A stretch of DNA of 20,000 nt. It comes from an uncultured virus (IMG/VR IMGVR_UViG_3300022198_000005) (Duplodnaviria; Heunggongvirae; Uroviricota; Caudoviricetes). This document shows, piece by piece, positions 4,601 through 20,000 of the stretch. Numbering within the stretch: position 1 is the first letter of the stretch; every line of letters begins with the position of its first letter. Below the pieces are notes generated by a model. That model made no database searches. It was not told the DNA's origin and saw only the letters and a program-made list of their open reading frames with translations. Location: the IMG/VR virus record IMGVR_UViG_3300022198_000005; one strand, 5' to 3'. Both the position numbers and the translations under genes were made by a program.

Positions 4601-7119
4601 TGAGCAAAGTCAGAATCAAAACCTAAGTACTGGCCTTCAAGCGTACTTGCTTGGAACGGTGCAAGCTCAAACGTAGAGTCGTTAGTATCGATCTGAGGAG
4701 CATCAGGCTCAGGCAAGTAATTTTGGAATACCTTCCAAGTACCTGCATCTGAAGCATCTCTAAAGAAACCAGCGTGGGCATATGTGCCACCTTCGTTATG
4801 ATTACCAGCAAAGCCGAGATCGATCGTTGCGGTTGGGCTTCCAGCTGATTCACTAGCGTTCAAGTAGAACAGGTTATCACTAATGTTCAGGTTGGTAGAG
4901 TTAACAGTAACTGTAGTGCCGTTGACTTGCAAGTTACCGCCAACTATCACGTTACCAGTCGTAGCGAGAGCACTAAAGTTGACCGAGTCGCCAGTTCCTA
5001 CAGGTTGACCGATAGAGATGACGCCAGTCGTAGAGTCATAACCAACACCAGTGCCAGCAACTAAGTGGGCTCTGACTTCAGTAGGTGAAGGACCTGTATA
5101 AGTGAATACACCGCTTCCAGAGTCATACGTAAAGCTACCATCACCACCAGCATCGACCGCGGTTAGATGTGCACGAACCTCTGTCGCAGAAGGACCAGTG
5201 TAAGTAAACACACCAGTCGACTCACTGTACGTAAAGCTGCCGTCACCCCCATTATCAACGGCTGAGAAGTGTGCTCTGACTTCGGCAGCAGATGGTCCAG
5301 TGTATGTGAATGTACCAGTTGACTCATTGTAAGAGAAGAATCCGTCTCCGCCGTTATCAACAGCATTGAGGTGTGCTCTTACTTCTGCAGAAGATGGACC
5401 ATTATAAGAGATCTCTCCAGTGATAGGGTTGTATGAGAGAGAACCGTCACCGCCAACGTCAGTTACTCTGATCGAGAAGCGAGCTCTGCTCTCATGGTCT
5501 GCAGAGTCATGCAAACGAGTAAGGAACGTATTACCGTCTGCAGTATTGATCGTTAAGACGCCAGTCGCAGAGTCATAAGCAGTAGAAGAAACTCCAGCAA
5601 CGAGTACTTCGCCGATAGAGTCGATCTGACCTTGAGCATTGACGCTGAAGATCGGGATCTGAGTCGTAGAACCATAAGATCCCGCAACGACTCCAGTGTT
5701 AGTGATGCTTAATGTGTTGGTTGAGCTGTCATATGAGAGGCCAGTGCCATTCAACGCGGCTTCATCGATCGCCATGTTGAAGTCACTATCAAAGTTAGCC
5801 TTTGTATAGACTTGTTCAACATCAAAACTAAACTCGCCAGTACTTGCATTATAGCTTAAGTCACCAGCTGCAGAGAAGTAATTACGAATCGTCTGAGTAG
5901 AAGTCGCGTCGCCTAAAGCAGAGTCAAACCTTGCTCTCGTATAATATAGGTTGTCGCCTTCAGTGATATTGTTCGTCGTAAAGTACGCAGCAAGCTCAGC
6001 ACTATCGATCGACAATGTATTCGTTGCGGCATCATAGGCAAGACCAACTCCGTCAGTTCCAGCAGCATCGAGTGCTACGTTAAAGTCAGAGTCAAAGCCT
6101 AAGTAACGACCTTCAAAGTCAGGAGCCTGAACTCCCTTGTTGAACACCCAGTCGTCAGCAGCCGCATTGTATGTCAGGTCTGCATTGGCACCAGCGATCG
6201 TGATGCCTGCACCGTCAGCAGCTGCAGCGTTAGGAGCACTATCAGCAAGGACGATGTTCTTATCATTGACCGACAATGTGGTCGAGTTGATCGTCGTGGT
6301 CGTACCATTGACGGTAAGATCACCTCCAACGGTCACATTGCTTGTAGTGACGACAGTATTGAAAGTTACGTCGCTTGTGGTCTCAACCGGCTGGCCGATC
6401 GAGAGAGTATTCGTAGCAGAATCATAATGCAAACCTGTACCATTCAACGTGGCTTCGTCAATAGCCATGTTGAAGTCAGAGTCAAAGTTTGCTTTCGTGT
6501 AGACTTGTTCTACGTCAAATGAGAATACGCCAGTCGTTGAGTTGTAGCTGAGGTCTCCGCCAGCGCTAAACTTTGAACGAACGACTTGAGTAGAATGCGC
6601 ATCAAGAAGAGCAGAGTCGAATCGTGCTCTTGTGTAGTATAGGTTTGTGCTGTCCTCAGCAAGGTCAGCAGTCGTGTTCTGATCGAGGTTAAGCTTAGCG
6701 ATGTTATTATCGCTATCTCGTACGACAAGTATGCCACCAGAATCTTGTATCCTAAGGCCACCAAGGTAGATCGTGCCACCACTCAGGTGCAAGTCTTTCC
6801 ATTTTAGAGCTGCAGTACCAAGGTTATGAGTGCTATCTTCGTCTGGTACTAGATCACTATGGACACGGTTAACTACTAAGTTACCATCTACGGTGACATC
6901 ACCTGTAGAATGGATCTCAGCAAACTGTACGCTATCAGCAATACCTAAGAATTGGCCTCTACGGGCAGTCCAATCTCCAGTGGCTGAATCGTAGACGAGT
7001 ATGTCTTTATTAACCGCACCGTCGACGTTAACGTGCTGAAGCGTGTTAAGGTCGTTAGGGTTGGTTATGTATTTGTTTGTAGGTACTCCTACAATAATAC
7101 GTTTTACGATTGTCGGCAT
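1684..7119 (-). CDS. Long repeat-rich tail fibre / fibre-like virion protein (1811 aa)
   Basis: G/S/T/D/N-rich with several interspersed repeat families ([12 protein letters not shown], [10 protein letters not shown], GPSAxEVRAH, GNLxVNGTT, GxYGSATxIPxFTV). It also has a DADTLDG motif, a [16 protein letters not shown] motif, a C-terminal [16 protein letters not shown] domain, a short [10 protein letters not shown] collagen-like stretch and an AFSIALG terminus. GAGAGG SD upstream. Confidence 0.88.
1809..1816 (-). promoter_or_regulatory. Possible late promoter variant (CATAAATA) ~130 nt upstream of the 1676 start
   Basis: Plus strand tatttatg = minus CATAAATA, which has the ATAAATA core. It is intragenic, so it could be chance. 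Confidence 0.4.
4324..6525 (-). repeat. Three dispersed copies of an ~80-aa module with an invariant 25-aa core [25 protein letters not shown] (6451-6525, 5758-5832, 4324-4398)
   Basis: Direct comparison of the translation and DNA of the three copies. Confidence 0.92.
5062..5469 (-). repeat. Four tandem 102-bp (34-aa) coding repeats, consensus [31 protein letters not shown]; fifth dispersed copy at ~2542-2646
   Basis: GPS codons recur at 102-nt spacing (~5394, 5292, 5190, 5088), and the units are visible in the translation. Confidence 0.92.
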
Positions 7120-7126
7120 GTTCCTC

Positions 7127-7480
7127 TCACCTTGTCACTGAAGGAGTTACGTGAATATGACCCTCGAGGATCCTTTCTATCACTCTATCTCCATCACTAT
7201 CTAAAAAGGAGAGTTCTACATCATAAACATATCTTCCGGCTTTTAACGTATCTGTCTGTAGGTTGGTAAGGGAGATGCTACATTTTCCAGCGGTCGCGGG
7301 GTCATAGATGCCTTGTGTAAAGACAATGGTGTCAGCGCTATCGCTATTATAGGTTCTTTTTAACTTAGCAGCTAGAGAGTGGTTGGTGAGGTCTTTGACA
7401 GAGCCATCTTGGTTCACAAGATGTAGCTCGATCGAGACGTCAGCTCCCTGATCAATTGTAATTTCTTCGTATTTCGCCAT
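7127..7480 (-). CDS. Conserved small virion protein, BppU N-terminal-like Ig-fold (fibre/baseplate adaptor-like)
   Basis: IDQGADxSIEL...[22 protein letters not shown]...RILEGxIxVTPSVTR pattern, typical of small proteins preceding fibre genes in T4-like marine phages. AAGGGAAG SD. Confidence 0.75.
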
Positions 7481-7509
7481 CTTCCCTTACCTTAGACGAT
7501 ATCTCTGTT

Positions 7510-7517
7510 TATTTATA
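7510..7517 (-). promoter_or_regulatory. T4-type late promoter TATAAATA upstream of the BppU-like/tail fibre genes
   Basis: Plus strand tatttata at 7510-7517 is the exact gp55 consensus, ~30 nt upstream of ATG 7480. It overlaps the stop codon of the upstream radical SAM gene. Confidence 0.85.
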
Positions 7518-8271
7518 CTTTGGGCAGATTAAAGTTATAGTCAACGGATTCTTTTATGCCCTTGGTAACAAATAGACCTCGGTCTTTTTCTATTTGTTGT
7601 ACATCCTTGAACATGACGACTGGTTTAAACTTATCAGAAGCAGGCTTGATCGATGACGAGGACCTATCTGTCTTGACAATCTTTAGGTTTAACTTATGCA
7701 TCTCTGCAAGCATCTTGGCTTCTTCGATCTGATGCTCATTATGACCAAACACAATGAACTGCCATGTGATCCGTTTTCCCATCTCAGAGCCTAAGACGAT
7801 GGCCTGATATATTAACTCTGCATTCTGTCCAACTCGATATATTGGGCTAGTATCAGGTAAACCATCAAGACCAAAGATCCATATCACGTTTGGAGGAGTG
7901 AGCTCAAACGCTTTACGATACCATGAGATGTTCTTTTGATGAGAGGCAGTATGGATCCTAAACGTTGTATCTGGAAACTCAGCACAGAGTCTAAGCACAT
8001 CATAGAACTTTTTATGATATACTGGATCACTAAATTGTCCGCATAAGGATATATTATTTTCAAAGAACTCAAATATCTTTCGAAGGTTATCGATGCTGAT
8101 GTCGCCAGACTCTCTCATCTTTTGCTTCATGCCAATGTGTCTTTTATCATCCTTCGGAAGCTTAAGGAAAGCCCTTACACATTGAGCACAATAAAGCCCA
8201 CACTTATTTGTAATCTCTATATTAGCATTCGACGAATACTTTTGAGCTATAACATACTTACTATGACTCAT
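7513..8271 (-). CDS. Radical SAM protein, core domain only (252 aa; start revised from 8325 to 8271)
   Basis: NIEITNKCGLYCAQC (CxxxCxxC), LCGQFSDP, FGLDG, YRVG, WQFIVFGHNEHQ. ATG 8271 has GGAG upstream and overlaps the end of the preceding gene. Confidence 0.88.
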   Translation of the reverse strand: MSHSKYVIAQKYSSNANIEITNKCGLYCAQCVRAFLKLPKDDKRHIGMKQKMRESGDISIDNLRKIFEFFENNISLCGQFSDPVYHKKFYDVLRLCAEFPDTTFRIHTASHQKNISWYRKAFELTPPNVIWIFGLDGLPDTSPIYRVGQNAELIYQAIVLGSEMGKRITWQFIVFGHNEHQIEEAKMLAEMHKLNLKIVKTDRSSSSIKPASDKFKPVVMFKDVQQIEKDRGLFVTKGIKESVDYNFNLPKV

Positions 8272-8560
8272 CTCTGACTCCGCAGTATAGATGACATCTT
8301 GACAAACACTTATCTGGCTCTTCATCTAACTTTCGAAAGTATTCTACCCACACATCTGATGTAAGGATTTCTTCAACTGTATCATTATTTTCAAGTTTTA
8401 ATCCTTCATCATAAAACCCATGTGCTTCGAGCTCGGGTTTAATATGAACGACATCTAACCAACAGCAAGGAAGCAAATAGCCATTTGAAGCATAAGCGAT
8501 ACCTCTGATCTCTTTGTCATAACCATCATTCTGCTTTTTGCATCGTGGTTTAATCTTCAT
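8261..8560 (-). CDS. Stand-alone SPASM/twitch-like Fe-S domain protein (99 aa)
   Basis: IKPRC...YASNGYLLPCCW...VEEILTSDVW...CLSRCHLYCG. Matches the C-terminal domain of the 12901-14112 protein (EITC...GLVYPCCW...LVDIINGEMW...RCGYMC). Confidence 0.8.
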   Translation of the reverse strand: MKIKPRCKKQNDGYDKEIRGIAYASNGYLLPCCWLDVVHIKPELEAHGFYDEGLKLENNDTVEEILTSDVWVEYFRKLDEEPDKCLSRCHLYCGVRDES

Positions 8561-9386
8561 ATGTCACTCCAAGTATCTTCCTGGCACCAAAAATCTGCTC
8601 CCGGATTACGTCTGGCGGATACTGGAGCCTGCCAACCACAGCATAACCTAACGCATTACGAGGGTCATCTTTCTCAAAACCTAGCTCTGAGAGCCTTTCA
8701 GCGTTATGATCCCACCATCTATCAAACTTTTCTTTATAACTGATCGGTCCATTGTTAAATGAGACGATGAAGTCAGAAGAATACTTACGTTGAGGACGAA
8801 TGTTTTCTTCTCCAACGTAGAGGTCATCATCTTTAAATACATCCCACAATGTTTTTCCCTTATGACAATAGTTTAATCTAATGTCACCGGGTTTCCAATC
8901 AAGTGTCCAATGTTGATAGTCTGAAGGATCTAAGTCGATCAACTCAGAGTTCATGTTCACGACGATCCTTCCAGGATTGCCAAAGTCTTCATAACGATGG
9001 ATCAATACGTTATACTGATCTATCGTGTGTTTAACTTTACGAGGCGCGTTCTTATAGAACTCGTTAGGGTCTTCTTGCGCACCTCTCATATCTTCGAAGT
9101 ATTTATGCAGTATGTTCAACAGCTCTTGGTCAAGACCTTTATCTTCATCGATCTCATGGTCAATAAAGTGTTCCCATGCGTTGATGATATGGATGCACTG
9201 ATTTAACTCATATACGACTCGCTCTTTGGTCCAATAGTAGTTTAAGTTGTATATGCGATCATTAAAGTATACGGTGCCATCCTTATCGATCGTCTCTTTC
9301 AAGAGCATAGCCCACTTATGACCAAGCGAATGGTCACACGACTCTATGCTAAACTCAGAGTTATCGAGGATGACGTTGAACTTCAT
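8550..9386 (-). CDS. Hypothetical protein (278 aa), possible metal-binding helical protein
   Basis: Long ORF coupled to both neighbours (ATGA overlap at 9383-9386). Motifs LNILHKYFE, YNVLIHRYE, LNYCHKGKT. No family confidently recognised. Confidence 0.75.
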   Translation of the reverse strand: MKFNVILDNSEFSIESCDHSLGHKWAMLLKETIDKDGTVYFNDRIYNLNYYWTKERVVYELNQCIHIINAWEHFIDHEIDEDKGLDQELLNILHKYFEDMRGAQEDPNEFYKNAPRKVKHTIDQYNVLIHRYEDFGNPGRIVVNMNSELIDLDPSDYQHWTLDWKPGDIRLNYCHKGKTLWDVFKDDDLYVGEENIRPQRKYSSDFIVSFNNGPISYKEKFDRWWDHNAERLSELGFEKDDPRNALGYAVVGRLQYPPDVIREQIFGARKILGVTYED

Positions 9387-10618
9387 AGTTGTCCGCTAAA
9401 GATGTACTTGTTCGTGATGTTACGAAAGTCTGACATCTCCTTTGCCTTTGGTACACATATCCCACATCCGCAGTATGAGTTAGGACATACCACAGTAGGA
9501 GTACGACCTGCATCAAACTGGGCTTGGAGCCATTCAAGGTAATCATCTGACTTGGTCAAAGAACAGATCGGACCTTTTCGATCTGTAGCCTTTTCTTTAG
9601 TAAACTTAGACAAGTCTACGTCTGGCATGGGAGTGCCTTCGATCTTTGCCATACATGTCTGATGGTGATAGACTGCATCTTTATCTTCTTCGATATGTAA
9701 GAAGAACCAATTTACCATGCAGTGATAGTCTTTAAAGTTAGACTGCTCGATGAACATCACGTCATCTTCTTTGCCATCATTCTTTACTGTCATGCATCGG
9801 CCGCCACAACACATCCGACCCATCTTTCTGGCTAAACCATCTTGGTCAAGTGAGATTGCAGGAGGCTTCCTTAACTGTACGTCCTTGATAGGGATACGAG
9901 TGACTTGTTCGTTCTTTGACTGCCAATGCATCTTGATGTATTGCATCTGATCTTTCTCATAGACCTGAGTCGTACGTCGCATCTTACCGTCAACGTCTTC
10001 AAACCATTCTGACTTAAACTTATTATCGTCTCCAATAGTTCGAGGGATGTAAGGGATCTCATTAGGCTTGAGGAAGTTTTCGATCAAGTCCACACACTCA
10101 TCAAAGTAATCAGCATGCATCATCACGTTGACCTTTGACATCTTCTTACGTGCTTGGTTCTCTTTTAAGAATAAGAGGTTCTCACGTACCAAAGCTTTCT
10201 GTTTATCGGTGCCTTCACAATGATAAGACACTGTGATCGTATTCATGTGATCGAGCAAGAACTGACCTCGTCTCTTGCTCCATGTTCCGTTAGTCGTGAG
10301 GTTCAACTCCATATATGGGTAGTTTTCTCTCAAGTATGGCACTAAGTCATAGAATGCAGGGTTGACTGCAGGTTCTCCACCTGTAAATGAGATCTTGCAT
10401 GTCCAGTTACGATCTGCTCGATGAAAGTCATCATAGATCTTCCAGTACTTGTCGATAAAGTCTGCTGTCTTCTTGTACTTTTCAAATGAGTTAAATGGTG
10501 CAGTTGTAGAGTGCATCCATCCAGTGCAGTATGAGCAGTCATAGTTGCATCGACGACCAAGGTCCCATACAACCATCTTTGTTGGTTTGTGTAACTCAGA
10601 GTAGATATAATCAAGCAT
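9383..10618 (-). CDS. Radical SAM protein with Cys-rich C-terminal extension (411 aa)
   Basis: WDLGRRCNYDCSYC, FTGGEP, LTTNG, VSYH. C-terminal MCCGGRC, HCMVNW, HQTC, CPNSYCGCGIC. Confidence 0.92.
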   Translation of the reverse strand: MLDYIYSELHKPTKMVVWDLGRRCNYDCSYCTGWMHSTTAPFNSFEKYKKTADFIDKYWKIYDDFHRADRNWTCKISFTGGEPAVNPAFYDLVPYLRENYPYMELNLTTNGTWSKRRGQFLLDHMNTITVSYHCEGTDKQKALVRENLLFLKENQARKKMSKVNVMMHADYFDECVDLIENFLKPNEIPYIPRTIGDDNKFKSEWFEDVDGKMRRTTQVYEKDQMQYIKMHWQSKNEQVTRIPIKDVQLRKPPAISLDQDGLARKMGRMCCGGRCMTVKNDGKEDDVMFIEQSNFKDYHCMVNWFFLHIEEDKDAVYHHQTCMAKIEGTPMPDVDLSKFTKEKATDRKGPICSLTKSDDYLEWLQAQFDAGRTPTVVCPNSYCGCGICVPKAKEMSDFRNITNKYIFSGQL

Positions 10619-11171
10619 TTGTATATTTTGAGAACCAGTCTCGTTGTTTCAATAGGTCTTTCTGCTGATTAAACAGGTAGACGGGGTAAGGCTTTTCGTC
10701 CTTTGTCCAGTTGATAGAGCTATAGTTGCTTTTATCATAAACATCATAATCAACTTGTTCTTCGATGAATTGATCCATACCTTTATAGTACTTCAACATC
10801 CAATACTCAGGATCTTGGTCGAACTTCTTATATATGTCAGACCTATCTCCTTGCCATGACATGATGGAGGAGTTTAGTTTCGTATGAAATGTTGGTCTCC
10901 ACCATGCATGGCAGAGCGTGAATCGTTCTGTAAGGAATGAGTTGCAGTCTCCTTTGATGAGCATATCAAGGTCAAAGTAGATGTTTTGACCGTCTCTAAA
11001 CTTATCAAAGATCTGTAACTTATTAAAGACCTGGATCTCATATCGATCTTCGGTCATCACCTCAAACGAATCATACTTTAGGTTTGAGTACGTATCAACC
11101 ATATGTTTAAGGTTGTCTACGTACCAATCATCATACTTTGTGCCAGTCTGGACACATATCACTCTCAGCAT
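10611..11171 (-). CDS. GT-A fold glycosyltransferase-like protein 1 (186 aa; start revised from 11285 to 11171)
   Basis: MLRVICVQTGTKYDDWYV, FNKLQIF, YFDLD (DxD), LNSSIMSW, GMDQFI. The N-terminus aligns with the starts of the two paralogues, and the revised start removes the overlap with the divergent gene. Confidence 0.8.
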   Translation of the reverse strand: MLRVICVQTGTKYDDWYVDNLKHMVDTYSNLKYDSFEVMTEDRYEIQVFNKLQIFDKFRDGQNIYFDLDMLIKGDCNSFLTERFTLCHAWWRPTFHTKLNSSIMSWQGDRSDIYKKFDQDPEYWMLKYYKGMDQFIEEQVDYDVYDKSNYSSINWTKDEKPYPVYLFNQQKDLLKQRDWFSKYTNA

Positions 11172-11209
11172 ATAGATAATATCATTGAAAACATGAATAT
11201 ATCTATATG
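11169..11209. promoter_or_regulatory. Divergent control region: imperfect palindrome with a TATAGATA late-promoter-like box on each strand
   Basis: CATATAGATA (11169-11178) and TATCTATATG (11200-11209) are perfect 10-bp inverted repeats that include both start codons. Inner TCAT/ATGA extends the symmetry. Confidence 0.6.
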
Positions 11210-11809
11210 GACATCCGATACTCCAAAGTGATGAAGTGGTTTTGGCATAATCATAGAGAGAACTTTGACCGACTACTCGAGTCACTCTCTCCCAACCAAC
11301 TCGAATGTAAACACTGGCTGATCGACGAGCTAAACCCTGTCTGGTTTAGGGATCACTCGTTAAAGATAGAGATCATAGGATCTTGGTTTGCCTGGCCTCT
11401 TGTAGACTTCTTAGCTCGTAAGTTTGACATCGAAAGGATCAGACTATACGATCCTGACCCATTCGCATGCATGGTGGCAAGAAGGTATATCGAAGAGTTT
11501 AAGTTCCCATTTGAGATACAGACATTTGAGATGTCATATTGGGACCATGAACAAGATGAAGTGGGTTGTCACTTACTCATCAATACATCAGCTGAACACA
11601 TGTATGAAACCCTTGCGACTGGCAGACAGAAATATGCAAAGGCTCCAGTCGTTGCTCTACAGTCAAATAATATGTTCAACGAAGAAGATCATGTGAACTG
11701 CGTATCAAGTGCTGAATCATTATCAAAGCAAAACGGGTTAAAAAGCATCTTATATTCTGGCACAAAGAGCTTTGATCGGTATGATCGTTACATGGTGATC
11801 GGCGTATGA
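11207..11809 (+). CDS. Class I SAM-dependent methyltransferase-like protein (200 aa)
   Basis: Rossmann-like pattern IEIIGSWFA (motif I-like), RLYDPDP (acidic end of beta2), LLINTSAEHM, VALQSNN, DHVNC, RYMVIG. Confidence 0.65.
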   Translation: MDIRYSKVMKWFWHNHRENFDRLLESLSPNQLECKHWLIDELNPVWFRDHSLKIEIIGSWFAWPLVDFLARKFDIERIRLYDPDPFACMVARRYIEEFKFPFEIQTFEMSYWDHEQDEVGCHLLINTSAEHMYETLATGRQKYAKAPVVALQSNNMFNEEDHVNCVSSAESLSKQNGLKSILYSGTKSFDRYDRYMVIGV

Positions 11810-12504
11810 ACTTCTTTTGTTTGAAGTGGGGTACTAAGTATGACGCTAAGTACGTCAATCGACTTTATGGCAGTCTAAAGAAAAACTGTCAAGTTGATTT
11901 TACATTTACGTGTTATACTGATGATCCAACGGAGTTAAGAGAAGAGATCGAGGTCAAGGACATCAGAGAACTACGACCTTATGATACTGATAGAGTCTTT
12001 ACGTATGAGAAACTCATCTTGCTTGAGAAGCATGAGAAAGGTATGTGGATCGACTTAGATGTCCTTATACATAAAGACATCACAGACCTCGTGACAAGAG
12101 ACGTAGATTCTTTCACGATGATATGGAATGATTGGAACGACTACGAGTACAAGACTGCATTGAACTGGGGGAAAGGTACAGCATGTCATGTGAACAGCTC
12201 GTTCGTGCGGTTTGAGAACGCAGAGTGGCTAGTACGATATACTCATGACAACTGGGATAAGATCGAGTTTACCTATAAGTCTCTTGACAAATACTTGTTT
12301 TATCAACACTTTCGAAAGAATAACCTAGCATTTTGGGAACCTGGTATCTTCTCTAACTATAATGTGCAAGGTCAAGTATTAAAGAACAGAGTGACCTTGT
12401 TTAATACATCCCATGTCCATGCGAATAATTTAAAAGACAGAGCGATTGAACTTCATGAAGCAGAGCCAAATGTACAGAGAATCTGGAAGTCGTACTCCCT
12501 TTGA
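11806..12504 (+). CDS. GT-A fold glycosyltransferase-like protein 2 (232 aa)
   Basis: FFCLKWGTKYDAKYVNRL, FTCYTDD, YEKL, WIDLDV (DxD), VNSSFV, SLDKYL. ATGA overlap with the upstream gene. Confidence 0.82.
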   Translation: MNFFCLKWGTKYDAKYVNRLYGSLKKNCQVDFTFTCYTDDPTELREEIEVKDIRELRPYDTDRVFTYEKLILLEKHEKGMWIDLDVLIHKDITDLVTRDVDSFTMIWNDWNDYEYKTALNWGKGTACHVNSSFVRFENAEWLVRYTHDNWDKIEFTYKSLDKYLFYQHFRKNNLAFWEPGIFSNYNVQGQVLKNRVTLFNTSHVHANNLKDRAIELHEAEPNVQRIWKSYSL

Positions 12505-12904
12505 AGGTTGGATCATCTTGTATGACAGAGTAGTCTTGTTGGCTCCTGGGAATAAAGAAGATCAGATCGAGCAGTTTGTTGATATGGGAGTAGAGGTTCG
12601 TGCTCTAGACTATAACCCTAAGTTTCATCAATACAAGCACTATGAGGTCGTTGACTTCATCTTTGACGATGTAAGTCTTAAAGCTGATTGTTTGGTTCAT
12701 TATAACTGTGAGAAGACGTACTATAAGATCAACTATACAGGTGACATCATACTCAGAGGTGATGACAGGCATAAGAACGGGGACTGTAACCCTATCACGT
12801 CATGCGAGCAGCTTATCATGCAGTACGAATTGAAAGAAGTGTATGATACTGTAATACAAGACTGTGGTAAGCATAAGCAATATATCGTATGGGGTAAAAG
12901 ATGA
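12470..12904 (+). CDS. Short, divergent methyltransferase-like protein, likely a paralogue of 11207-11809 (start uncertain: 12446, 12455, 12470 or 12518)
   Basis: VVLLAPG / RALDYNP / LVHYNCEK / ILRGDD / DCNPITSCEQL / YIVWGK are colinear with IEIIGSW / RLYDPDP / LINTSAEH / ALQSNN / HVNCVSSAESL / YMVIGV. Confidence 0.6.
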   Translation: MYRESGSRTPFEGWIILYDRVVLLAPGNKEDQIEQFVDMGVEVRALDYNPKFHQYKHYEVVDFIFDDVSLKADCLVHYNCEKTYYKINYTGDIILRGDDRHKNGDCNPITSCEQLIMQYELKEVYDTVIQDCGKHKQYIVWGKR

Positions 12905-14112
12905 CCAAATGGTTTGAAATAAATGATGTTGGAAGGGTCCAACTCGAGATCACAAACTATTGCAATGCAGCATGTCCATACTGCGAAAGAGCACTTAGAC
13001 CTAAAGATCAGCTTAATAATAGTTACATGTCTCTTGATACTATCAAGAAGTTTTTTGATCCCTATGAATGGTTAAGTCTAAATCAAATCCACCTTTGCGG
13101 TAATGTAGATGAACCGACAATCCATCCTCAACTCTTTGAGATGATCGATTATTTTCTTGGAGTAAGCCATAATAATTCTACACATATAACGATCTCTACG
13201 AATGGAGGAGCCAGAGACGAGGAGTTTTGGACTGAACTAGGTAAAGTATCATCTGCAAATAAAGTCAGCGTATTATGGGGAATCGATGGCTTAGAAGATA
13301 CTAATCATCTTTATCGAGTTGGTGTCAAGTGGAATACACTCATGCGTAATGTAAAGGCATTCATCTCAGCCGGAGGTCATGCATCATGGCAGTTTATCGT
13401 ATTTGACCATAATAAACATCAAATAGACGAAGCCAAAGCTCTCGCAAAGGAATTAGGGTTTAGACTGTTCAAGACCATATCTTCAAATAGGATTCCAAAA
13501 GAAGAACAAAGTCAAAGACCAAGCAAGATAAAACCTGAGCCAGTTAAGTTTTATAAAGAGCATGAAGCAAAAACCTTCTTGACAATACCTCCACAGACTA
13601 GGCGTGCCAATTTGATAAAGCCAGTATTTGAAAAGAAGGAATATGTAGAAAAAACTCGTGTAGATATGGTGCCAGTAGTAGAAGAAAAGAAGTCATTCAG
13701 AGTCTTTGTTCCCATACACGGAATAAAACCAAAGCTAAATACATTTAGGATTTCATTGCCTGCAAAGGGAACGCAGACGCATCCAGAAATCACTTGTGCA
13801 GCAAAGCCATGGTCTTATAAGAAACATTTTTCTCATGATGGTATCAGAGCTAACATCTATATGACGCACGAAGGATTAGTGTACCCATGTTGTTGGGTTA
13901 CTTCGAAAAGAGGACTGACTGAATTAAAACAGACGGCGTTTGGTATACCTGCTGAAGATTATTCTATACATCATAATGAGCTCGTAGACATCATCAACGG
14001 AGAGATGTGGACACATATCGATGAATCTATGGATCAACTAAGATGCGGTTATATGTGTAAGAACTCTATCGAACATGAAACGGTAGACATCAATCAATAT
14101 ACACAACTATGA
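12901..14112 (+). CDS. Radical SAM protein with C-terminal SPASM/twitch-like domain (403 aa)
   Basis: QLEITNYCNAACPYC, LCGNVDEP, STNGG, WGIDGLEDTNHLYRVG, WQFIVFDHNKHQ. C-terminal C...GLVYPCCW...CGYMC. Confidence 0.92.
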   Translation: MTKWFEINDVGRVQLEITNYCNAACPYCERALRPKDQLNNSYMSLDTIKKFFDPYEWLSLNQIHLCGNVDEPTIHPQLFEMIDYFLGVSHNNSTHITISTNGGARDEEFWTELGKVSSANKVSVLWGIDGLEDTNHLYRVGVKWNTLMRNVKAFISAGGHASWQFIVFDHNKHQIDEAKALAKELGFRLFKTISSNRIPKEEQSQRPSKIKPEPVKFYKEHEAKTFLTIPPQTRRANLIKPVFEKKEYVEKTRVDMVPVVEEKKSFRVFVPIHGIKPKLNTFRISLPAKGTQTHPEITCAAKPWSYKKHFSHDGIRANIYMTHEGLVYPCCWVTSKRGLTELKQTAFGIPAEDYSIHHNELVDIINGEMWTHIDESMDQLRCGYMCKNSIEHETVDINQYTQL

Positions 14113-14777
14113 CGAAAGTATTTGCAGTAAGGATCGGTGAGAAGTATGGTCCAGAATATGAGGAGTATATTGACTCTCTCATCCCTAACGTGACATGGAT
14201 ACATGAACCCATTCGGTATGACGTTAAGTTTCAATGGAATAAGCTGTATCCAATGTCTCTTGACTTAGACGAGCCCGTCGTGATGATCGACATTGACATG
14301 GTATTCATGAATGCTTATATGGATCTGATTGAATACCCGATCGAGAGAGGCCAGTTCATTGGTATGCATAACTGGTGGGCGACTGGCGGATGTCCTCTTC
14401 AAGGAGGGTTTCAGAAGTACTATCCTAAAGACTGTCGCTACATCTATGACAAGTTCATGAGAGACCCATCATATTGGCAACGTTATTACATTGAGAAGAA
14501 AGAAACTTCTGGGCTTGTGAACGGCGAACAGAACTTTGTATATGAGTCAGTAAATGAAAGGCTTGAACTGAAGTATTTGCCAGATCAATGGTGCACAAAG
14601 TGGAAAGCAGACCCGCAAAAAGAATGGGTAGTTAACATGAACGCTAACTACCCAGGAGACTGGCTGTACTTAGGTGAAGAGTTTAACCCTGAGATTCGGG
14701 TTCTCCACTTTCTGGGGCGGGAGCAGGTTCCGGAGCAGGTTCGTCAACCGAAGTGGGAGTGGCTGCTGCCTGTTTAG
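14109..14777 (+). CDS. GT-A fold glycosyltransferase-like protein 3 (222 aa)
   Basis: VFAVRIGEKYGPEY, QWNKL, MIDIDM (DxD), NGEQNFV, VLHFLG (C-terminal His as in GT8-like enzymes). ATGA overlap. Confidence 0.8.
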   Translation: MTKVFAVRIGEKYGPEYEEYIDSLIPNVTWIHEPIRYDVKFQWNKLYPMSLDLDEPVVMIDIDMVFMNAYMDLIEYPIERGQFIGMHNWWATGGCPLQGGFQKYYPKDCRYIYDKFMRDPSYWQRYYIEKKETSGLVNGEQNFVYESVNERLELKYLPDQWCTKWKADPQKEWVVNMNANYPGDWLYLGEEFNPEIRVLHFLGREQVPEQVRQPKWEWLLPV

Positions 14778-15240
14778 GACCAGCATGAAACATAGAGATC
14801 AATTCTAGCATATCTGTCGACTTACGCATCGCTGCTTTCCATTCACGATCGGTCGACTCTTTAATCTTTTCATGCTCAAACAAGTTGAGCTTGAACTCAA
14901 AGAACTCTTCCTTCTTATTCGAAATGTCGATGATACTTTGGATCGTGATGGTTGTAGTAGGTGCTTTATCAGCAGAATAGATCAGGCCTTCATCAGTAGC
15001 GATCTGCTTGACCAGGCCTAAAAATGCTTGACGTTCAAGACTTCTTTTCTCGTCAGTATTCTTATTGATCTTATCCACTGTAACATGTTTTAACAACTCT
15101 TGAAACTGTACCATGTTTTCATCAGCAGGGATCACTTCTTCATAATCAGTTCCATCTGGCTGAACCCATAACGTACAGACGTTTTCTCTCTCTAGATCAA
15201 CAAAGTATGCTGTTCTAAGGTTCTTTTTTTCGCTTGACAT
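14683..15240 (-). CDS. Hypothetical phage protein (185 aa) with Pro/Ala/Glu low-complexity tail
   Basis: GAGGA SD upstream of ATG 15240. Charged helical protein (EFFEFKLNLFEHEKIKES...MRKS); follows the structural genes on the same strand. Confidence 0.75.
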   Translation of the reverse strand: MSSEKKNLRTAYFVDLERENVCTLWVQPDGTDYEEVIPADENMVQFQELLKHVTVDKINKNTDEKRSLERQAFLGLVKQIATDEGLIYSADKAPTTTITIQSIIDISNKKEEFFEFKLNLFEHEKIKESTDREWKAAMRKSTDMLELISMFHAGPKQAAATPTSVDEPAPEPAPAPESGEPESQG

Positions 15241-15252
15241 ATTATAGTCCTC

Positions 15253-16260
15253 TTATGTTAAGTACACCCAAAGGTAGTTGGTTTTAACTGATGTCGACGC
15301 TCCCGATGGCACGTCTTGTGATCGATAGTCGTTTGCGTTGACAAATCGGTATAGAGTAGTTTGACCGGCGAGCTTGGTATCGATCATGCCGCTACCTCTA
15401 ATAGCGGCTCCTGTCGCAGGAGAAGTCGTAGAAACTTCGTAACGTGTACGATAGCCAACATGTGATTCGTTCGCCTCGTAGATATAATCTTGAATCCACT
15501 CAAAAAATCTACGAGCAAAGTTATTGTCTCCAAGAGGAGCAGAACTATACGGTTTAATCAAGCTTCCGTCTGACTTTACGAAAGCTGGCAATCTTCCTCC
15601 CCAAAGGCCAGTGGTCGCGTTCCAGTTTGTAACATTCAAATAATATTCCCCGGTGGTCTGAGGTTGATCTAGAGTGTTAGGGATACTTCCCGCAACATAA
15701 GCTGCAGCGTTTGCTCTCGTATCGACGTAGACTGTAGAAGCGTCCACGTTCGAAGCGCCAGTCACTGACGTAGTTGTATTAACCATATACAGGTTGCCTG
15801 CTGTCGCATCGCCAATCAGATTAGCCGCGCCTTTCTTTCCAGTAATTGCTGGATATACAAGCGTGTCAAACACGTCTTGTTTTGTCATTACTTTGATGTT
15901 TCCAGCTTCATAATAACAAGGTCTTAATGTAGTAGCATCAGTAGTGAATTTTTCAGTCCATGCTTTTCCAGTATAACCGGTAGCGGTTACGGTTTGCTCA
16001 ATGCGGTCATAAGTAACAGTAACAGTAGAAGTATCTGCAGGGTTTTGATAAGTGACTGCGTTAGTTGTATAAGCACCAGCTTGCAAACGAGTATCAGTGA
16101 TACCGTTCAAGTTTGCATCATTAGTGCTTTTACGCGATAAACTTGTACCCACTAGTGTACGTCTTTGTATTTCTGCAATCAACGAATCCAACTCGCCCTG
16201 AGTAAAAGATCTGGGTTGACCAGTTACCGCATCTAACCACATTGGTCTTCTCACTGCCAT
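15253..16260 (-). CDS. Putative virion structural protein (335 aa)
   Basis: T/A/G-rich, in the structural gene run, with three DT(R/K) motif repeats. Confidence 0.7.
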   Translation of the reverse strand: MAVRRPMWLDAVTGQPRSFTQGELDSLIAEIQRRTLVGTSLSRKSTNDANLNGITDTRLQAGAYTTNAVTYQNPADTSTVTVTYDRIEQTVTATGYTGKAWTEKFTTDATTLRPCYYEAGNIKVMTKQDVFDTLVYPAITGKKGAANLIGDATAGNLYMVNTTTSVTGASNVDASTVYVDTRANAAAYVAGSIPNTLDQPQTTGEYYLNVTNWNATTGLWGGRLPAFVKSDGSLIKPYSSAPLGDNNFARRFFEWIQDYIYEANESHVGYRTRYEVSTTSPATGAAIRGSGMIDTKLAGQTTLYRFVNANDYRSQDVPSGASTSVKTNYLWVYLT

Positions 16261-16262
16261 AA

Positions 16263-16877
16263 TTAAGCTCCTGGACTATATATTGTTTTAAGTACTGATC
16301 CGTCTGAATCTTGGATTTCAAGTGTTACTAAATTATAGAACCGACTTGAACGAATTGTTGCGGCAGTAATCATATTATTCGTGACGCTGTTCGGAGCTAC
16401 ACTAAATGCACCAGTTGATGAATCGAATAAGATGCCACCTGCACTATCTTTTTGGAATACTGACTTGATCTGTGTCGCAGTAGCTCCGCTGTAAGTGAAA
16501 GCGCCAGTACCCGAATTATAAGAGAGCGAACCAAACCCTGATCCACTTACACTTAAACTCGACTTCGCAAGAGTTTGTACTGAATCTGAAGATGAATAAT
16601 ATCCTATAATTCCACTCGCCGAATCATAATCGATACGACCGACCGCAGTACCAGAAGTAGTAGTATTTAGCGCTGAGAAACCTCCACGAGCAAGAATAGC
16701 TACTTCAATCGAATCATCAAGGTCAACTACGATCGCATCAATACGATTGATAGCAGCAACAACGTCTGAATCCCCGCCGGTGAGCAATGCAGGGTCACCA
16801 ACGTTCGTAGAGATCGTGTTGGTCTTACTTACCAGCGTTGATACTGGATCTGATAAGTTAACTATTGGTCTAGTCAT
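16263..16877 (-). CDS. Short fibre-like structural protein (204 aa)
   Basis: N-terminal VNLSD...KTNTISxxVGD...DVVAAIN pattern. Shares the GSLSYNSGTGAFTYSG repeat with the 1811-aa fibre. AAGGGAAG SD. Confidence 0.75.
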   Translation of the reverse strand: MTRPIVNLSDPVSTLVSKTNTISTNVGDPALLTGGDSDVVAAINRIDAIVVDLDDSIEVAILARGGFSALNTTTSGTAVGRIDYDSASGIIGYYSSSDSVQTLAKSSLSVSGSGFGSLSYNSGTGAFTYSGATATQIKSVFQKDSAGGILFDSSTGAFSVAPNSVTNNMITAATIRSSRFYNLVTLEIQDSDGSVLKTIYSPGA

Positions 16878-17088
16878 TTCTTCCCTTTATGAGAGTCTGT
16901 AACATGGATTTGATTTCAGCCATGTCATCCTCAAGTCTATCAAGCCGCTTGGCTGATTGGACCTTCGCTCTCTTTACCTGTTTTGCTTGGTCAATCTTTT
17001 GTTTATTTATATTGATGATGGCACCACTTACCCGGTCTCTCACGAAACCGGGATGTCCTTCAACCTTTATGTACCGTTGTTCTGTCAT
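16870..17088 (-). CDS. Small conserved T4-like phage protein with coiled-coil C-terminus (72 aa)
   Basis: YIKVEGHPGFVRDxxSGAIIN...LEDDMAEIKSMLQTL, recalled as the small gene following DUF4815-type genes in marine T4-like phages. ATGA overlap at 17085-17088. Confidence 0.8.
   Translation of the reverse strand: MTEQRYIKVEGHPGFVRDRVSGAIININKQKIDQAKQVKRAKVQSAKRLDRLEDDMAEIKSMLQTLIKGRND
17004..17011 (-). promoter_or_regulatory. T4-type late promoter TATAAATA, internal to the 72-aa gene, upstream of the 204/335/185-aa genes
   Basis: Plus strand tatttata at 17004-17011. Shares the 12-mer TATAAATAAACA with the 7506-7517 site. Confidence 0.7.
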
Positions 17089-20000
17089 GTGGCTAAGGCA
17101 ATGATCCTCAAGTCTTTGATGCGAGGTACACGAGAAGAGTTTGTAGAAGTCATTACCACCTTGACTTGGAACTGACTGAATGGAGCCAACGTACCAGTAT
17201 CACCACCTGCAAGGAACGAGTACTCACGGTATGTAACTCTGTCGTTATCAGCTGGGAGCTCGGCCTCTTTTGCGATCTCTGTCCAAACTACATCATCAAG
17301 TACAGTGTCTGATGTGCCGCTCTTATAGTATACCTTGATGTCAGCTTCAGCTGGTCTGTTCGCGCTCAAGAACACTTTAATGCCGCTAGCTGGTTCAGCG
17401 AGAGTAACCTTCTTGGTCAAGTGTTTAGCAGCGATAGAACCTTCTGTTGGGTCAGCCTCATCGATCCAAACCAATGGGACGTTAAATCCAGTAGTTGCAG
17501 CAGAGTCTTGATTATCAATGACGTTCTCAGTCAAGATCATCGAGACACGTTGCAAGTCAATGACCGGAGACACTTTTGTATCAGCAGTCGTAAGGTCGAT
17601 ACGCATCGTAGCAGACTTTGCAGAGATCAATGTTTCGTTTGCTGGTGTCAAGATAACCTTTGGCTCATCGAGATAGTTCTTCTCGTTTAGCTGGATAGTC
17701 GTGTATGAACTTGACTTACTCCGAGTACCTGAACCAGTCATGCGATTACGAGTCGTACTCGCATAAGATCCACCAGCAGTAAGCTTCACGCCTGCACCAA
17801 CGGTTGTTTCTTCTGGTTGCATGATTGTAACCAACGGGTGAATCTCATCAAAGTGTGCTTGTTGAGACACTAAGATACTTCCGCCTCCGATAGCAGAGAA
17901 GTCTGCTTGAGAGTCAGAACCAACAGAGATTCCAGTCCAATCAAGGTCATATACCTTATGCGTACCATTGATCGCGCTTGGCACAACACCACCGACAGAA
18001 TCTGTAAGTCCGCTGATCGTCACTACGTCACCATAGATGAATCCATGTCCAGGGAACAGAATGGTCACGTCAGAATCTCCAGACACCGTACGAATTCGGT
18101 TTGCTGGTAGACGTTCTGCAGCCATAACACCGTTCTCAAGGATGGCATAACCGCTTGTATCAAACTCTGCACGATACAACTTAAACATCAAGTCTCTCGT
18201 TTGGTCTGGAGTCCAAGTAGAAGAGTTTTGTGACTGGAACAATGAACCAAGTGAAGGCTGTTTAGTCACACGAGATGAAGTAGTACCAATCACAAAGTCA
18301 TACGTCTTAGCAACATATACGTTGTAACCAGCAGTCTCTGCCTTCAAGCGAATCGCATACTCTCTACCTGGAGATAAGTACACTGGTTCATCAAAGACAA
18401 AGTTTGTCGGGTTAGCTTTCACCACGTCGATGTCATCTACGTCGCCGATGTCTTCGATCGCCACGACTGCTGAACCTGAGATGCCACCACCACGAATAGA
18501 GAACGCACCAGGAACAACGATCTGCGTAGGAGTACCATTTTCCATCGTCACGATCTCGCATTGGATCGGCACGTCTGCATCTTTCGTCTTGATAAAGATG
18601 TCACACGACGTGATGAATACGCCGTTGGGGTATTGCACTCTATCGATGTAGAAAGATTGTGCCAACGGATCAGAAGGAGGAGGCGGAGGTACGATCGCCA
18701 CAGTAACTGAACGTGTAGATCTGATCGTCTTTTGACGGATGTCAAGCGTACCAGCTGAGGTGAAGGAAGAGATACTTGTGCTGATCGCCTCATTATCATA
18801 GACGCTCACATCCATCAACTTAAACTCGGCAGTTCCAGTACGGAATCGAATGTTGTCAGTTGCAGGGATGAAGAATGATCCAGTCAAGATACCATCTGCA
18901 TCAGAGATCAACTGGCCTGGAGTCAACGGGTGTTGTGTTGCATTCTGATACGTATTGCCATAGTCTGAATCAGTCGTAGCATAAAGTTGGAAGCCACCTT
19001 CAGGACGAACCCAATCAGATACATCAATACCGTTAAAGAATGCAAAGTAACGAGTATTAGGTCTCAAGCTAACGGTCTTGAAACGCACAAGCTTTGATCT
19101 CATCCATGGGATGATCTCTGTCCGTAGCTGCTTGTTGCCGATAGTCTCATTAGTGGTCTTATCACCAGTAATGTATGCGGTTCCTACACCACCAGCAGTC
19201 CAGCCATTCTCGAGAGCTTGTCTTAAAATCTCAGATGATTGGTTTGAAACTGTTACATATTCGAACAAGTCTGGTTCATATCGAGTCTCTACCCACTCAT
19301 CAGTAGCAGGAGAAAGGATGGTGTAACCCTGTGAAGTAATCACCTCGAACGGGTTTACGTTCATCGTTTCAGTCGCAAGCAACTGCTGAGCAAAACTTAC
19401 TTCACTATAGTCAAGAGTAGCAAACTCACCAGTCCTACGAACATTGCCAACCAAAGACGCATCAGAGTCAAAGATCAAGCGTACGTTCTTCTTGACGAAA
19501 GGAGGCAGCAGCTGTTGTTCATCAGTGTCGATCGAAGCGCGATATCTTCCAGGGATATAGTCTGCAAAGATTGACGTTGAGAAGTTGTCTGCCAAGAATC
19601 CAGACTTTGTACGAGGTAGACCATCAGAGTCAAGTACTAATTCAGTCTGAGCTGCATTTTCAAGTAAGGTCAAAGAAGTAAGCTCTTCAAGCTTACTCAA
19701 CCTACGCTCAAGACGACCGATGTCTTGCATCGTATAACCAAGGTTCTTGATCGAGCTGAATGAAAGGTCTGATTCACCCAGCGTATTCGCATTCAAGTTG
19801 AATTCATAGATCAACATGGACCCAACAGGAATATCAGGCACTGTAGGCTGTAAAGAAGATACGCCTTGAATATACTTTATTTCTGCGCGATTAGATTTAA
19901 TCGCTGCCTCTTCTCTACGAAGGACCAAGCGATCTTTACGTGGCATATAGTAAACCACATCAGTGTCGATAGATGTCTGGTTCTCAGGTAAGTGAACCAC
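17085..20000 (-). CDS. Large virion structural protein, DUF4815-like, 5'-truncated by the window edge
   Basis: YYMPRKDRL, YTMQDIGRLERRLxxLExxTSLTLLE, KSGFLADNF, NVNPF, PWMRS, FRTG, DPLAQSF, GSLFQSQNSSTWTPDQxxDLMFxLYRAEF, SPVIDL, PRIKDLRIIALA. Confidence 0.88.
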   Translation of the reverse strand: MVHLPENQTSIDTDVVYYMPRKDRLVLRREEAAIKSNRAEIKYIQGVSSLQPTVPDIPVGSMLIYEFNLNANTLGESDLSFSSIKNLGYTMQDIGRLERRLSKLEELTSLTLLENAAQTELVLDSDGLPRTKSGFLADNFSTSIFADYIPGRYRASIDTDEQQLLPPFVKKNVRLIFDSDASLVGNVRRTGEFATLDYSEVSFAQQLLATETMNVNPFEVITSQGYTILSPATDEWVETRYEPDLFEYVTVSNQSSEILRQALENGWTAGGVGTAYITGDKTTNETIGNKQLRTEIIPWMRSKLVRFKTVSLRPNTRYFAFFNGIDVSDWVRPEGGFQLYATTDSDYGNTYQNATQHPLTPGQLISDADGILTGSFFIPATDNIRFRTGTAEFKLMDVSVYDNEAISTSISSFTSAGTLDIRQKTIRSTRSVTVAIVPPPPPSDPLAQSFYIDRVQYPNGVFITSCDIFIKTKDADVPIQCEIVTMENGTPTQIVVPGAFSIRGGGISGSAVVAIEDIGDVDDIDVVKANPTNFVFDEPVYLSPGREYAIRLKAETAGYNVYVAKTYDFVIGTTSSRVTKQPSLGSLFQSQNSSTWTPDQTRDLMFKLYRAEFDTSGYAILENGVMAAERLPANRIRTVSGDSDVTILFPGHGFIYGDVVTISGLTDSVGGVVPSAINGTHKVYDLDWTGISVGSDSQADFSAIGGGSILVSQQAHFDEIHPLVTIMQPEETTVGAGVKLTAGGSYASTTRNRMTGSGTRSKSSSYTTIQLNEKNYLDEPKVILTPANETLISAKSATMRIDLTTADTKVSPVIDLQRVSMILTENVIDNQDSAATTGFNVPLVWIDEADPTEGSIAAKHLTKKVTLAEPASGIKVFLSANRPAEADIKVYYKSGTSDTVLDDVVWTEIAKEAELPADNDRVTYREYSFLAGGDTGTLAPFSQFQVKVVMTSTNSSRVPRIKDLRIIALAT

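Follow-up and report, generated by a model that had tools for sequence, protein, structure and literature searches.

The Ten-Gene Island and Its Setting

What does a T4-like phage gain from a block of glycosyltransferase and radical S-adenosylmethionine (SAM) genes lodged among the genes of its particle? The question is raised by a 20,000-nucleotide stretch of DNA from the uncultured virus IMGVR_UViG_3300022198_000005 (hereafter the window), which corresponds to G000:C1:2164-22163 of a 47.8-kb viral contig estimated to be 26% complete. Listing and translation of the open reading frames (ORFs) placed ten genes, g1 to g10, in two divergent arms at positions 7513-14777, as had been described in an original prediction, which took them for a late system that modifies fiber or other virion proteins. 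We conclude that this island is a self-contained accessory enzyme cassette in a hypervariable host-recognition cluster. The best explanation of its function is late, soluble glycosylation of virion proteins with SAM-dependent and radical SAM editing, to which we assign a probability of about 40%, the acceptor and the product being guesses. The predicted features of the island are as follows (lengths in amino acids, aa; pLDDT, predicted local distance difference test; AF2, AlphaFold2):

7513-8325, minus strand: g1, radical SAM core without an auxiliary-cluster domain of its own, 270 aa, maybe starting at Met19 (8271); CGLYCAQC motif; phrog_21308, 7e-7
8261-8560, minus strand: g2, free-standing twitch/SPASM-like Cys-rich domain, upstream of g1; PCCW and Cx3Cx3C motifs
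8550-9386, minus strand: g3, conserved protein, function unassigned, 278 aa; 39 relatives
9383-10618, minus strand: g4, radical SAM enzyme with 16 Cys and a Cys-rich C-terminal domain, 411 aa; CNYDCSYC motif; Pfam Radical_SAM
10611-11171, minus strand: g5, GT-A paralogue, 186 aa from Met39 (the ORF runs on to a GTG at 11285); DLD motif; hhalign 96.6% to the g7 family
11171-11207: divergent control region with an inverted TATAGATA pair (boxes at 11171-11178, plus strand, and 11200-11207, minus strand), the start codon of the corresponding arm following each box at a distance of 28 nt
11207-11809, plus strand: g6, protein of the class I SAM-dependent transferase fold, 200 aa; AF2 pLDDT 96.0
11806-12504, plus strand: g7, GT8-like GT-A glycosyltransferase, 232 aa; DLD motif; AF2 pLDDT 90.8
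12446-12904, plus strand: g8, small protein of a virus-only family, probable start at 12455 (an ATG three codons in); hhalign 31%
12901-14112, plus strand: g9, radical SAM enzyme with a fused twitch/SPASM-like domain, 403 aa; CNAACPYC motif; phrog_21308, 1.6e-28
14109-14777, plus strand: g10, GT-A paralogue, 222 aa; DID motif; hhalign 79% to the g7 family

Within each arm every gene overlaps the next, by 4-65 nt in the minus arm (g1/g2 65, g2/g3 11, g3/g4 4, g4/g5 8) and by 4-59 nt in the plus arm (g6/g7 4, g7/g8 59, g8/g9 4, g9/g10 4), and the sole gap, of 35 nt, lies between the start codons of the two arms. The G+C content is 40.5%, compared with 45.5 and 44.4% in the flanks. With ten genes in 7.3 kb, this is the smallest version of the island among those compared.

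PHROG annotation of the whole contig revealed a T4-like phage with a baseplate module, a 1679-aa VrlC, gp32, gp33, and head-closure and tail-tube genes; judged from these sequences, the contig comes from a T4-like myovirus, a relative of Pelagibacter phage Mosig. Locally, the genes run in the order VrlC, h3, h2, h1, the island, p117, a gene encoding an 1811-aa fiber and one encoding a 970-aa fiber-like protein. The flanks of the island are virion genes, namely VrlC, three small late genes, a fiber-assembly-like gene and the 1811-aa fiber gene, as the earlier description had it. The neighboring features are:

14683-16877, minus strand: h1, h2 and h3, three late genes between VrlC and the island; h2 is the marker in the linkage test below
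7127-7517, minus strand: p117, fiber-assembly-like gene, with the fiber genes following; phrog_1084 3e-20, phrog_3304 2e-17
14625-14654, minus strand: terminator-like hairpin just after h1 and inside the g10 coding sequence, a 13-pair stem followed by a T-run; a consensus match only

The 3′ end of g10 overlaps the convergent gene h1 by 95 nt (14683-14777). The 1811-aa fiber (1684-7119) contains several long internal repeats, such as units ending in EVRAH, and h3 (16263-16877) shares a fiber repeat motif, with 36.6% identity to fiber residues 1467-1543. On one contig of run X9, a joint from 7246 to 17140 that would skip the island and h1-h3 was set aside, as its shorter side had only 27 letters, below the mark for reliability.

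Judged by gene order, the island lies within the host recognition cluster (HRC), the non-syntenic region that runs from VrlC to gp14, with the gp14 boundary falling beyond the end of the contig. The HRC of pelagimyophages and cyanomyophages was described as containing fibers, many glycosyltransferases (of which GT8 is the commonest type) and radical SAM cassettes (Zaragoza-Solas et al. 2020, PMC7029224). According to this description, the HRC and our island are alike in being hypervariable, in lying directly downstream of VrlC in T4-like aquatic myoviruses, and in combining fibers, glycosyltransferases and radical SAM genes. Although the absence of a characterized pathway noted in the original prediction is a fair statement, an island of this type is already in print as the HRC (PMC7029224).

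Glycosyltransferases g5, g7 and g10

The AF2 model of g7 gave 364 Foldseek matches in the PDB at E<=0.001, and those listed were almost all GT-A enzymes. The best matches were LgtC (the top match), the catalytic domain of UGGT, LARGE1, GlyE and glycogenin, with E values of 1e-8 to 1e-6 and TM-scores of about 0.6. These GT8 enzymes and g7 have in common the GT-A fold and an invariant DxD motif, which in g7 consists of D83 and D85 (DLD), invariant in 43 sequences. The island glycosyltransferases differ from the GT8 enzymes in sequence (12-18% identity) and are minimal proteins of 186-232 aa, with no extra domains. On the evidence of the predicted structure, g7 is a GT-A-fold protein closest to GT8-type enzymes.

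Sequence comparisons placed g7 less readily. The GT8 Pfam family PF01501 scored 12.2 bits, below its cut-off of 24.3; 2 of 43 family members matched it at E<=1, the best with 6e-4. There were 192 metagenomic relatives of g7 at E<=1e-3, and a Pfam domain was found in none of the 120 listed; Pfam scans of the individual members of the g7 and g3 families yielded scattered sub-threshold matches only. A sequence search of the PDB with the g7 family profile gave no match, nor did a tblastn search with g7 of 50,697 GenBank phage records.

The other two proteins, g5 (DLD) and g10 (DID), were assigned to GT-A by profile only. The start of g5 is most likely Met39, because g7 and g10 align from their own residue 1 to g5 residue 39-40. 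The three DxD GT-A paralogues that had been proposed are therefore borne out by motif, by the g7 model and by hhalign. Each of the three has its own orthologues in other phages, with 44-58% identity (44-50% for g5 and g10; those of g10 are 46-50% identical in L045, L042, L052 and L063), and so it appears that three distinct activities are maintained together.

The structural neighbors of g7 bear on what the enzymes may glycosylate. They include the protein-glycosylating GT8-type enzymes glycogenin, GlyE and UGGT and, at rank 46 with an E value of 1.1e-6, the chlorovirus PBCV-1 capsid glycosyltransferase A64R (2p72), which resembles g7 in being a virus-encoded GT-A-type enzyme and glycosylates a structural protein of its own virus. 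Freeman and colleagues are said to have reported in 2023 that mycobacteriophage virions, too, are glycosylated by virus-encoded GT-A-type enzymes. We know of no radical SAM partners in the mycobacteriophage and PBCV-1 A64R systems. The g7 model also matched viral GT8-like models in BFVD. Two BFVD entries, A0A6J5PVH5 and A0A6J7XC21, are uncultured phage proteins of about 700 aa that join a g7-like GT-A domain to an MptE-like domain, which we take to be typical of Maf-type flagellin glycosyltransferases; this pairing would be a hint of protein glycosylation in relatives.

The top position of LgtC, a lipooligosaccharide galactosyltransferase, instead raises the main rival explanation, which is that these soluble GT8-like enzymes work on the cytoplasmic side of the membrane, their substrate being the lipid A-core or another precursor of envelope glycans, or else a glycoprotein of the host, with the SAM-dependent and radical SAM enzymes tailoring the sugar. 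The receptor would then be masked against superinfection or against loss of progeny on debris, and the cassette would travel with fiber genes as receptor and fiber co-vary. Host O-chain modification was indeed proposed for the GT8 genes of pelagimyophage HRCs in the published description (PMC7029224). However, the Pfam GT8 family is not reached by sequence, and no membrane segment is predicted in any of the ten proteins (highest 19-residue Kyte-Doolittle mean, 1.33). Likewise, Pfam, PHROG and NCBIfam scans of the ten proteins found no lipid-carrier, initiating phosphoglycosyl transferase, flippase or polymerase gene in the island. We consider modification of the host envelope unlikely. A sugar-nucleotide synthesis gene is also absent from within the island.

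SAM-Dependent Fold Proteins and g3

For g6, Foldseek returned at least 500 matches at E<=0.001, and those listed were almost all SAM-dependent transferases, including CmoA, NTM1, Coq5 and NodS at about 1e-6. The predicted structure confirms a class I SAM-dependent methyltransferase fold. The best sequence-profile matches were aminopropyl and aminobutyryl transferases (spermidine synthase, 3e-4; CntL, 0.013), and there was no Pfam match. The Gly-rich SAM loop is degenerate, reading IIGSWFAWP (family consensus IIGGWFGxP) as opposed to GxGxG, and D84 is nearly invariant. Because of the degenerate loop and the aminopropyl/aminobutyryl profile matches, methyl is not established as the group that g6 transfers.

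The small protein g8 shows weak similarity (hhalign 31%) to g6-family sequences over their C-terminal half, and its Atlas matches were viral hypothetical clusters at 0.91-0.95, with methyltransferase clusters below 0.9; from these comparisons, g8 is possibly a remnant of the g6 fold. Therefore, of the two methyltransferase-like genes that had been proposed, g6 stands by its fold, whereas the case of g8 is a weak one.

The gene that had been left without an assignment, g3, is still without one: there was no credible PDB, Pfam or Atlas match (the Atlas model has a pLDDT of 0.41), and no Pfam domain was found in any of its 39 relatives. A profile match to D-amino-acid aminotransferase, at E 0.09, was at chance level and was rejected. 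In other phages, g3 homologues adjoin DNA polymerase and FolE/QueE-like genes (L030:9926-10804) or gp32 (L032:1531-2397), which indicates that g3 moves independently of the glycosyltransferase/methyltransferase (GT/MT) core.

Radical SAM Genes and a Predicted Split Enzyme

The CxxxCxxC motif is found near the N-terminus of g1, g4 and g9, and residues C21, C25 and C28 are present in at least 90% of the rows of the g9-family alignment. The Pfam Radical_SAM family (PF04055) scored 39.0 bits for g4 and 39.5 for g9, above the gathering cut-off of 29.5, and 17 for g1, below it. The proposal of three radical SAM genes holds up by motif in all three, with g1 placed by its paralogy to the core of g9 (blastp, 31% over 222 aa, E 1e-25).

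The fourth gene of this group, g2, had been described as a free SPASM-like gene. Its Cys-rich sequence scored 17.7 bits with the SPASM family PF13186 (below the cut-off of 21.5) and aligned to residues 302-386 of the Cys-rich C-terminal domain of g9 (E 2e-5). The Cys patterns are C-x25-G-x4-C...Cx3C in g9 and G-x4-C-C...Cx3Cx3C in g2, compared with a SPASM pattern of CxnGx4C...Cx2-3C, and C299, C330, C331, C382 and C386 of the g9 C-terminal domain are invariant in alignment A3. Since g1 is a paralogue of the g9 core and g2 aligns to the g9 tail, g2 and g1 together make up a split version of a g9-like enzyme. Therefore, as judged by these alignments, g2 appears to be the detached auxiliary-cluster domain of g1 rather than an independent gene.

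Enzymes of the NF033640/SPASM-twitch type and those of the island are alike in having a radical SAM core and a Cys-rich domain, in the island a putative auxiliary-cluster domain; this domain is C-terminal in g9 but is a separate polypeptide, encoded upstream, in g1/g2. The order of twitch followed by core was found in the window (7513-8560) and in L028 (11462-12332), and pairs in the order of core followed by twitch were found in Mosig, L056-L061 and L063; the g9 paralogue has both parts fused. The loci at which the split radical SAM pair is encoded as two overlapping genes include L046 (15004-15850). As the split pair recurs in many loci, the two-polypeptide form is widespread and not a local wreck.

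The g2-g1 complex was predicted with an interaction prediction score from aligned errors (ipSAE) of 0.78, as compared with 0.00 for the best of three controls; among solved complexes, 51 of 78 reached this mark, and among mismatched pairs, 2 of 108 did so. The runs agreed in at least 61% of contacts, and the partner pLDDT was at least 75. This prediction shows likeness and not binding, as split halves can pass by way of solved single-chain radical SAM/SPASM structures.

With NF033640 (N_Twi_rSAM), g4 and g9 each scored 51.7 bits (7e-14), far under the cut-off of 170 bits, and so they do not belong to this family. The best PDB match of g4 was MoaA (5e-5), and a sequence search of the PDB with g9 alone gave no match. 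The radical SAM profile matches in the PDB were generic, comprising GDGT-MAS, SkfB, BlsE, NifB, MoaA and YydG. All NCBIfam matches were far under their cut-offs, and these sequences can be placed no more finely than in the twitch/SPASM group. An insertion of about 70-80 residues lies in g9 between the core and the Cys-rich domain (13500-13800, residues ~205-290) and is not found in homologues.

The presence among the closest twitch/SPASM-type matches of the peptide maturases SkfB and YydG, together with many weak NCBIfam peptide-maturase matches, would suit a different explanation, in which the radical SAM enzymes mature a phage protein or peptide (by cross-links, epimerization or methylation) and the GT-A genes have a separate function. 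A cluster for ribosomally synthesized and post-translationally modified peptides would have a precursor-peptide gene beside the maturases, for which there is no room here, the largest gap being 35 nt, though a precursor could lie nested or at a distance. Because these matches fall so far short of the family cut-offs, and because radical SAM genes number anywhere from 1 to more than 10 while the GT/MT core stays constant, we regard this explanation as very unlikely.

Radical SAM genes are also numerous in the Campylobacter phages CP220 and CPt10, which are T4-like and have 11 and 12 of them, respectively, in an exchangeable module (Timms et al. 2010, PMC2853527). We found that g9 matches radical SAM genes of CP220 and F379 with 27.5% identity (E 1e-13 to 6e-14). 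The resemblance to the island is limited to the radical SAM core, and the section of the paper on this module mentions no GT8-like or g6-like partners; its authors suggest a metabolic benefit at low oxygen (PMC2853527).

Putative Late-Type Promoters

In the divergent gap, the sequence CATATAGATA...TATCTATATG forms a perfect inverted repeat of 10 nt that bridges the two divergent start codons. It contains both boxes of the TATAGATA pair, and TATAGATA is a one-mismatch variant of the late promoter TATAAATA. There are three copies of TATAGATA in the 47.8-kb contig, all 15-28 nt upstream of a start: those of g6, g5 and a gp4-like head-closure gene (at G000:C1:38715, 15 nt upstream). The other 23 single-mismatch variants have 26 sites, 1 of which is near a start. 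Given that about 2.7% of strand positions are near a start, the probability of finding all three TATAGATA sites there is about 2e-5, a post-hoc estimate. It looks, from position and sequence, as if TATAGATA serves this phage as a functional version of the T4-type late box.

The exact TATAAATA box occurs six times in the contig, with four copies 6-36 nt upstream of structural-gene starts, and is absent from the island. One of these four, at 7510-7517, is the box of p117 itself, 29 nt upstream of it, and a fifth copy, at 17004-17011 on the minus strand, lies 126 nt before h3. A scan of the island for sigma-70-type promoters gave 29 sites compared with 21.9 +/- 3.7 in shuffles, none convincingly placed. 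In Mosig, the equivalent 35-nt divergent gap has the canonical TATAAATA in both directions; canonical late boxes also precede the GT/MT arms of L063 and L050, and in L052/L053 the h2 operon extends into the GT/MT genes in one direction. These comparisons indicate that the island is likely to be transcribed late, with the virion genes. The late pathway of the original prediction is thus plausible in its timing, on a basis that is one of sequence only.

Late-type promoters also weigh against modification of the host envelope, as this would be poor timing for exclusion, with only the envelope made in the last minutes being changed.

Relatives and Linkage to Structural Genes

The layout in the cultured phage Mosig is the same: VrlC-h2-h1, two divergent enzyme arms, a fiber-assembly gene and fibers. 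Mosig has homologues of g5 (43%, Mosig_00094), g10 (27%), g6 (29%), g1 (33%) and g2 (30%), as well as of h1, h2 and p117. Among 50,697 GenBank phage records, h2 and g5 each match Mosig only, and a megablast search of GenBank phages with positions 7000-15300 gave no match. In the loci found by way of island genes, the core order g7-g8-g6-g5(-g10) is conserved, and from 0 to at least 6 radical SAM sites were detected per locus. The cassette is directly downstream of VrlC in the window, L045, G005, G011, G012 and Mosig.

A scan of genome contigs with the g7 family yielded 393 pattern matches and 4 relatives, all on contigs of metagenome-assembled genomes. All four carry island genes, with VrlC present in the locus of L045 and elsewhere on the contig in L042, and a cellular context was found for none of the four.

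Linkage was evaluated by picking loci with the structural gene h2 alone, using a three-row alignment as the query (a search with the single h2 protein matched the same phage only). This gave 15 new loci, of which 14 have downstream sequence, and g5/g7-, g10- and g6-like genes were found within about 6 kb of h2 in 13 of the 14. The 13 linked loci represent six distinct architectures, and the single exception, L062, represents one. A search with the h2 profile found no match in G002-G005 and G013, this search having had no positive control.

A different setting was found in the complete relatives G003 and G004 (167-177 kb; G003:C1:60700-97000, comprising L036 and L022, and G004:C1:7700-42000, comprising L026 and L040). 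Their related cassettes combine g7-g8-g6-g5 with about ten radical SAM genes over tens of kilobases, with few late boxes. Genes of the tryptophan-halogenase-like, taurine-dioxygenase-like, nucleotide-sugar epimerase and denV types are also found in these islands. VrlC was not detected in the complete genome G004, either by PF16075 or with the VrlC protein of the window. Linkage to a structural gene thus holds for 13 of the 14 h2-selected loci, but in G002/G003 and G013 the islands are away from VrlC, and in G004 VrlC was undetected. Islands unlinked to structural genes had been named beforehand as an observation that would refute virion modification, and in these three genome types it was made in part. 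The location of the cassette away from fibers in G003, G004 and G013 would also fit modification of the host envelope.

The genes around the larger islands suggest two further explanations. In the first, the enzymes would form a cytoplasmic pathway that makes or edits a metabolite, for instance a nucleotide sugar, a nucleoside or a compound resembling a cofactor; this metabolite would aid replication or counter competitors or host defense and would not be attached to the particle. The neighbors of the larger islands are of the auxiliary metabolic type (taurine dioxygenase-like, tryptophan halogenase-like, nucleotide-sugar epimerase, FolE and QueC-like), the Mosig island has a sugar aminotransferase and a carbamoyltransferase, and enzymes of small-molecule chemistry are found among the generic radical SAM matches (MoaA, BlsE, which is a cytosylglucuronate decarboxylase, viperin-like enzymes and NifB). 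However, three separately conserved glycosyltransferase paralogues imply an acceptor, and the window has no scaffold or precursor-synthesis gene, which, together with the late promoter type and the h2 linkage, makes a metabolite pathway distinctly improbable.

The second is DNA hypermodification, in which sugar or alkyl groups would be placed on the bases of phage DNA. Some hypermodifications of thymidine involve radical SAM enzymes, and related genes are near FolE, QueC-like and QueE-like 7-deazaguanine genes in G003, G004 and L030. The fold of g7 is nevertheless predicted to be GT-A, whereas the T4 DNA glucosyltransferases have the GT-B fold; the Pfam, PHROG and NCBIfam scans detected no kinase, DpdA-like or nucleotide-handling gene in the island, its promoters are of the late type, and its genes lie among virion genes. 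Of the explanations considered, we find this the least probable.

Maintenance and Habitat

The public DNA runs that contain the island stretch are labeled freshwater and estuary. In an independent estuary-labeled run, one contig spans positions 7008-15808 with 288 differences (about 3%). Over four runs, the length changes listed are two that keep the reading frame, of 6 and of 9 nt, and a -1/+1 pair at low depth whose members are separated by 12 nt; the in-frame variants are at 13669, in the lineage-specific insertion of g9. Therefore, the genes are intact in a strain that is about 3% divergent. The freshwater genomes in the HRC paper are said to be without radical SAM and lipopolysaccharide-related genes (PMC7029224), in contrast to the freshwater and estuary runs found here. 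The closest cultured relative, Mosig, infects marine SAR11, in contrast to the labels of these runs.

Discussion

Virion-protein glycosylation is favored because it fits best with the timing, the solubility of the proteins and the h2/fiber neighborhood. The parts of the island suit a late, soluble pathway with three separate transferases, for which neither a lipid carrier nor export machinery would be required. In this model, the bidirectional late-type promoter would drive both arms together with the virion genes, and g5, g7 and g10 would use host nucleotide sugars to build a short glycan directly on phage structural proteins while these are still unassembled in the cytoplasm. The likeliest acceptors would be the products of adjacent genes, the baseplate-distal and fiber proteins. 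Editing of the glycan or the attachment site, for example by methylation, epimerization or dehydration-type chemistry, would then fall to the SAM-dependent and radical SAM enzymes, and the likely benefit would be a change in the adsorption, shielding or stability of the particle.

Several points weigh against this model. The choice of fiber or other virion proteins as the substrate in the original prediction is supported by nothing that we computed. The best structural match of g7 is a lipooligosaccharide enzyme, and the authors who described such islands favored host O-chain modification (PMC7029224). The TATAGATA box is a variant motif with positional support, picked after the gap had been seen. 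The h2 loci belong to related phages, and shared descent can produce the linkage. In C48C1, the closest named relative by VrlC (38%), there are fiber-type genes only and no island homologue between VrlC and the p117 homologue, which marks the island as accessory. The cassette is 30-35 kb from VrlC in G002/G003 and G013, and in G003 and G004 it is beside gp32/gp59/gp33 and FolE/QueC-like genes. Cassettes away from VrlC mean that fiber linkage is not obligatory.

A more specific form of the virion-glycosylation model can be put forward tentatively, as a possibility rather than an expectation. It supposes a dedicated late pathway of the Mosig lineage in which three minimal GT8-like enzymes would glycosylate baseplate-distal or fiber proteins, with h2 as the prime candidate, after which the radical SAM enzymes, including a two-polypeptide form of core plus twitch, and the SAM-dependent transferase would edit the glycan. 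Two hotspots in the genome would exchange these enzymes as cassettes, and the pathway would tune the host range or hide the particle.

A literature search revealed no glycan on any T4-like aquatic phage and no reported function for glycosyltransferase/radical SAM phage islands of this kind. What was already known is the island type, by gene content (PMC7029224), and the occurrence of radical SAM modules in CP220-like phages (PMC2853527). The published HRC description deals with gene content only and, in its account of the cluster, does not mention promoters, a conserved GT/MT core or a split radical SAM pair (PMC7029224). New here are the minimal version of the island, the conserved GT/MT core, the apparent variant bidirectional late-type boxes, the predicted radical SAM pair, both split and permuted, and the connection to the cultured phage Mosig.

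In abundant aquatic T4-like phages, those of SAR11 among them, such islands range in size from several to tens of kilobases. Because Mosig is in culture, on Pelagibacter ubique HTCC1062, and has homologues in the same layout, the choice between a virion glycan, the host envelope and a metabolite is directly testable. If the host envelope were the target, the island would be a late receptor-masking system. If virion proteins are glycosylated, radical-SAM-edited protein glycosylation would be added to phage biology, with a bearing on the evolution of host range, and the tailoring of the protein glycan would be chemistry without viral precedent.

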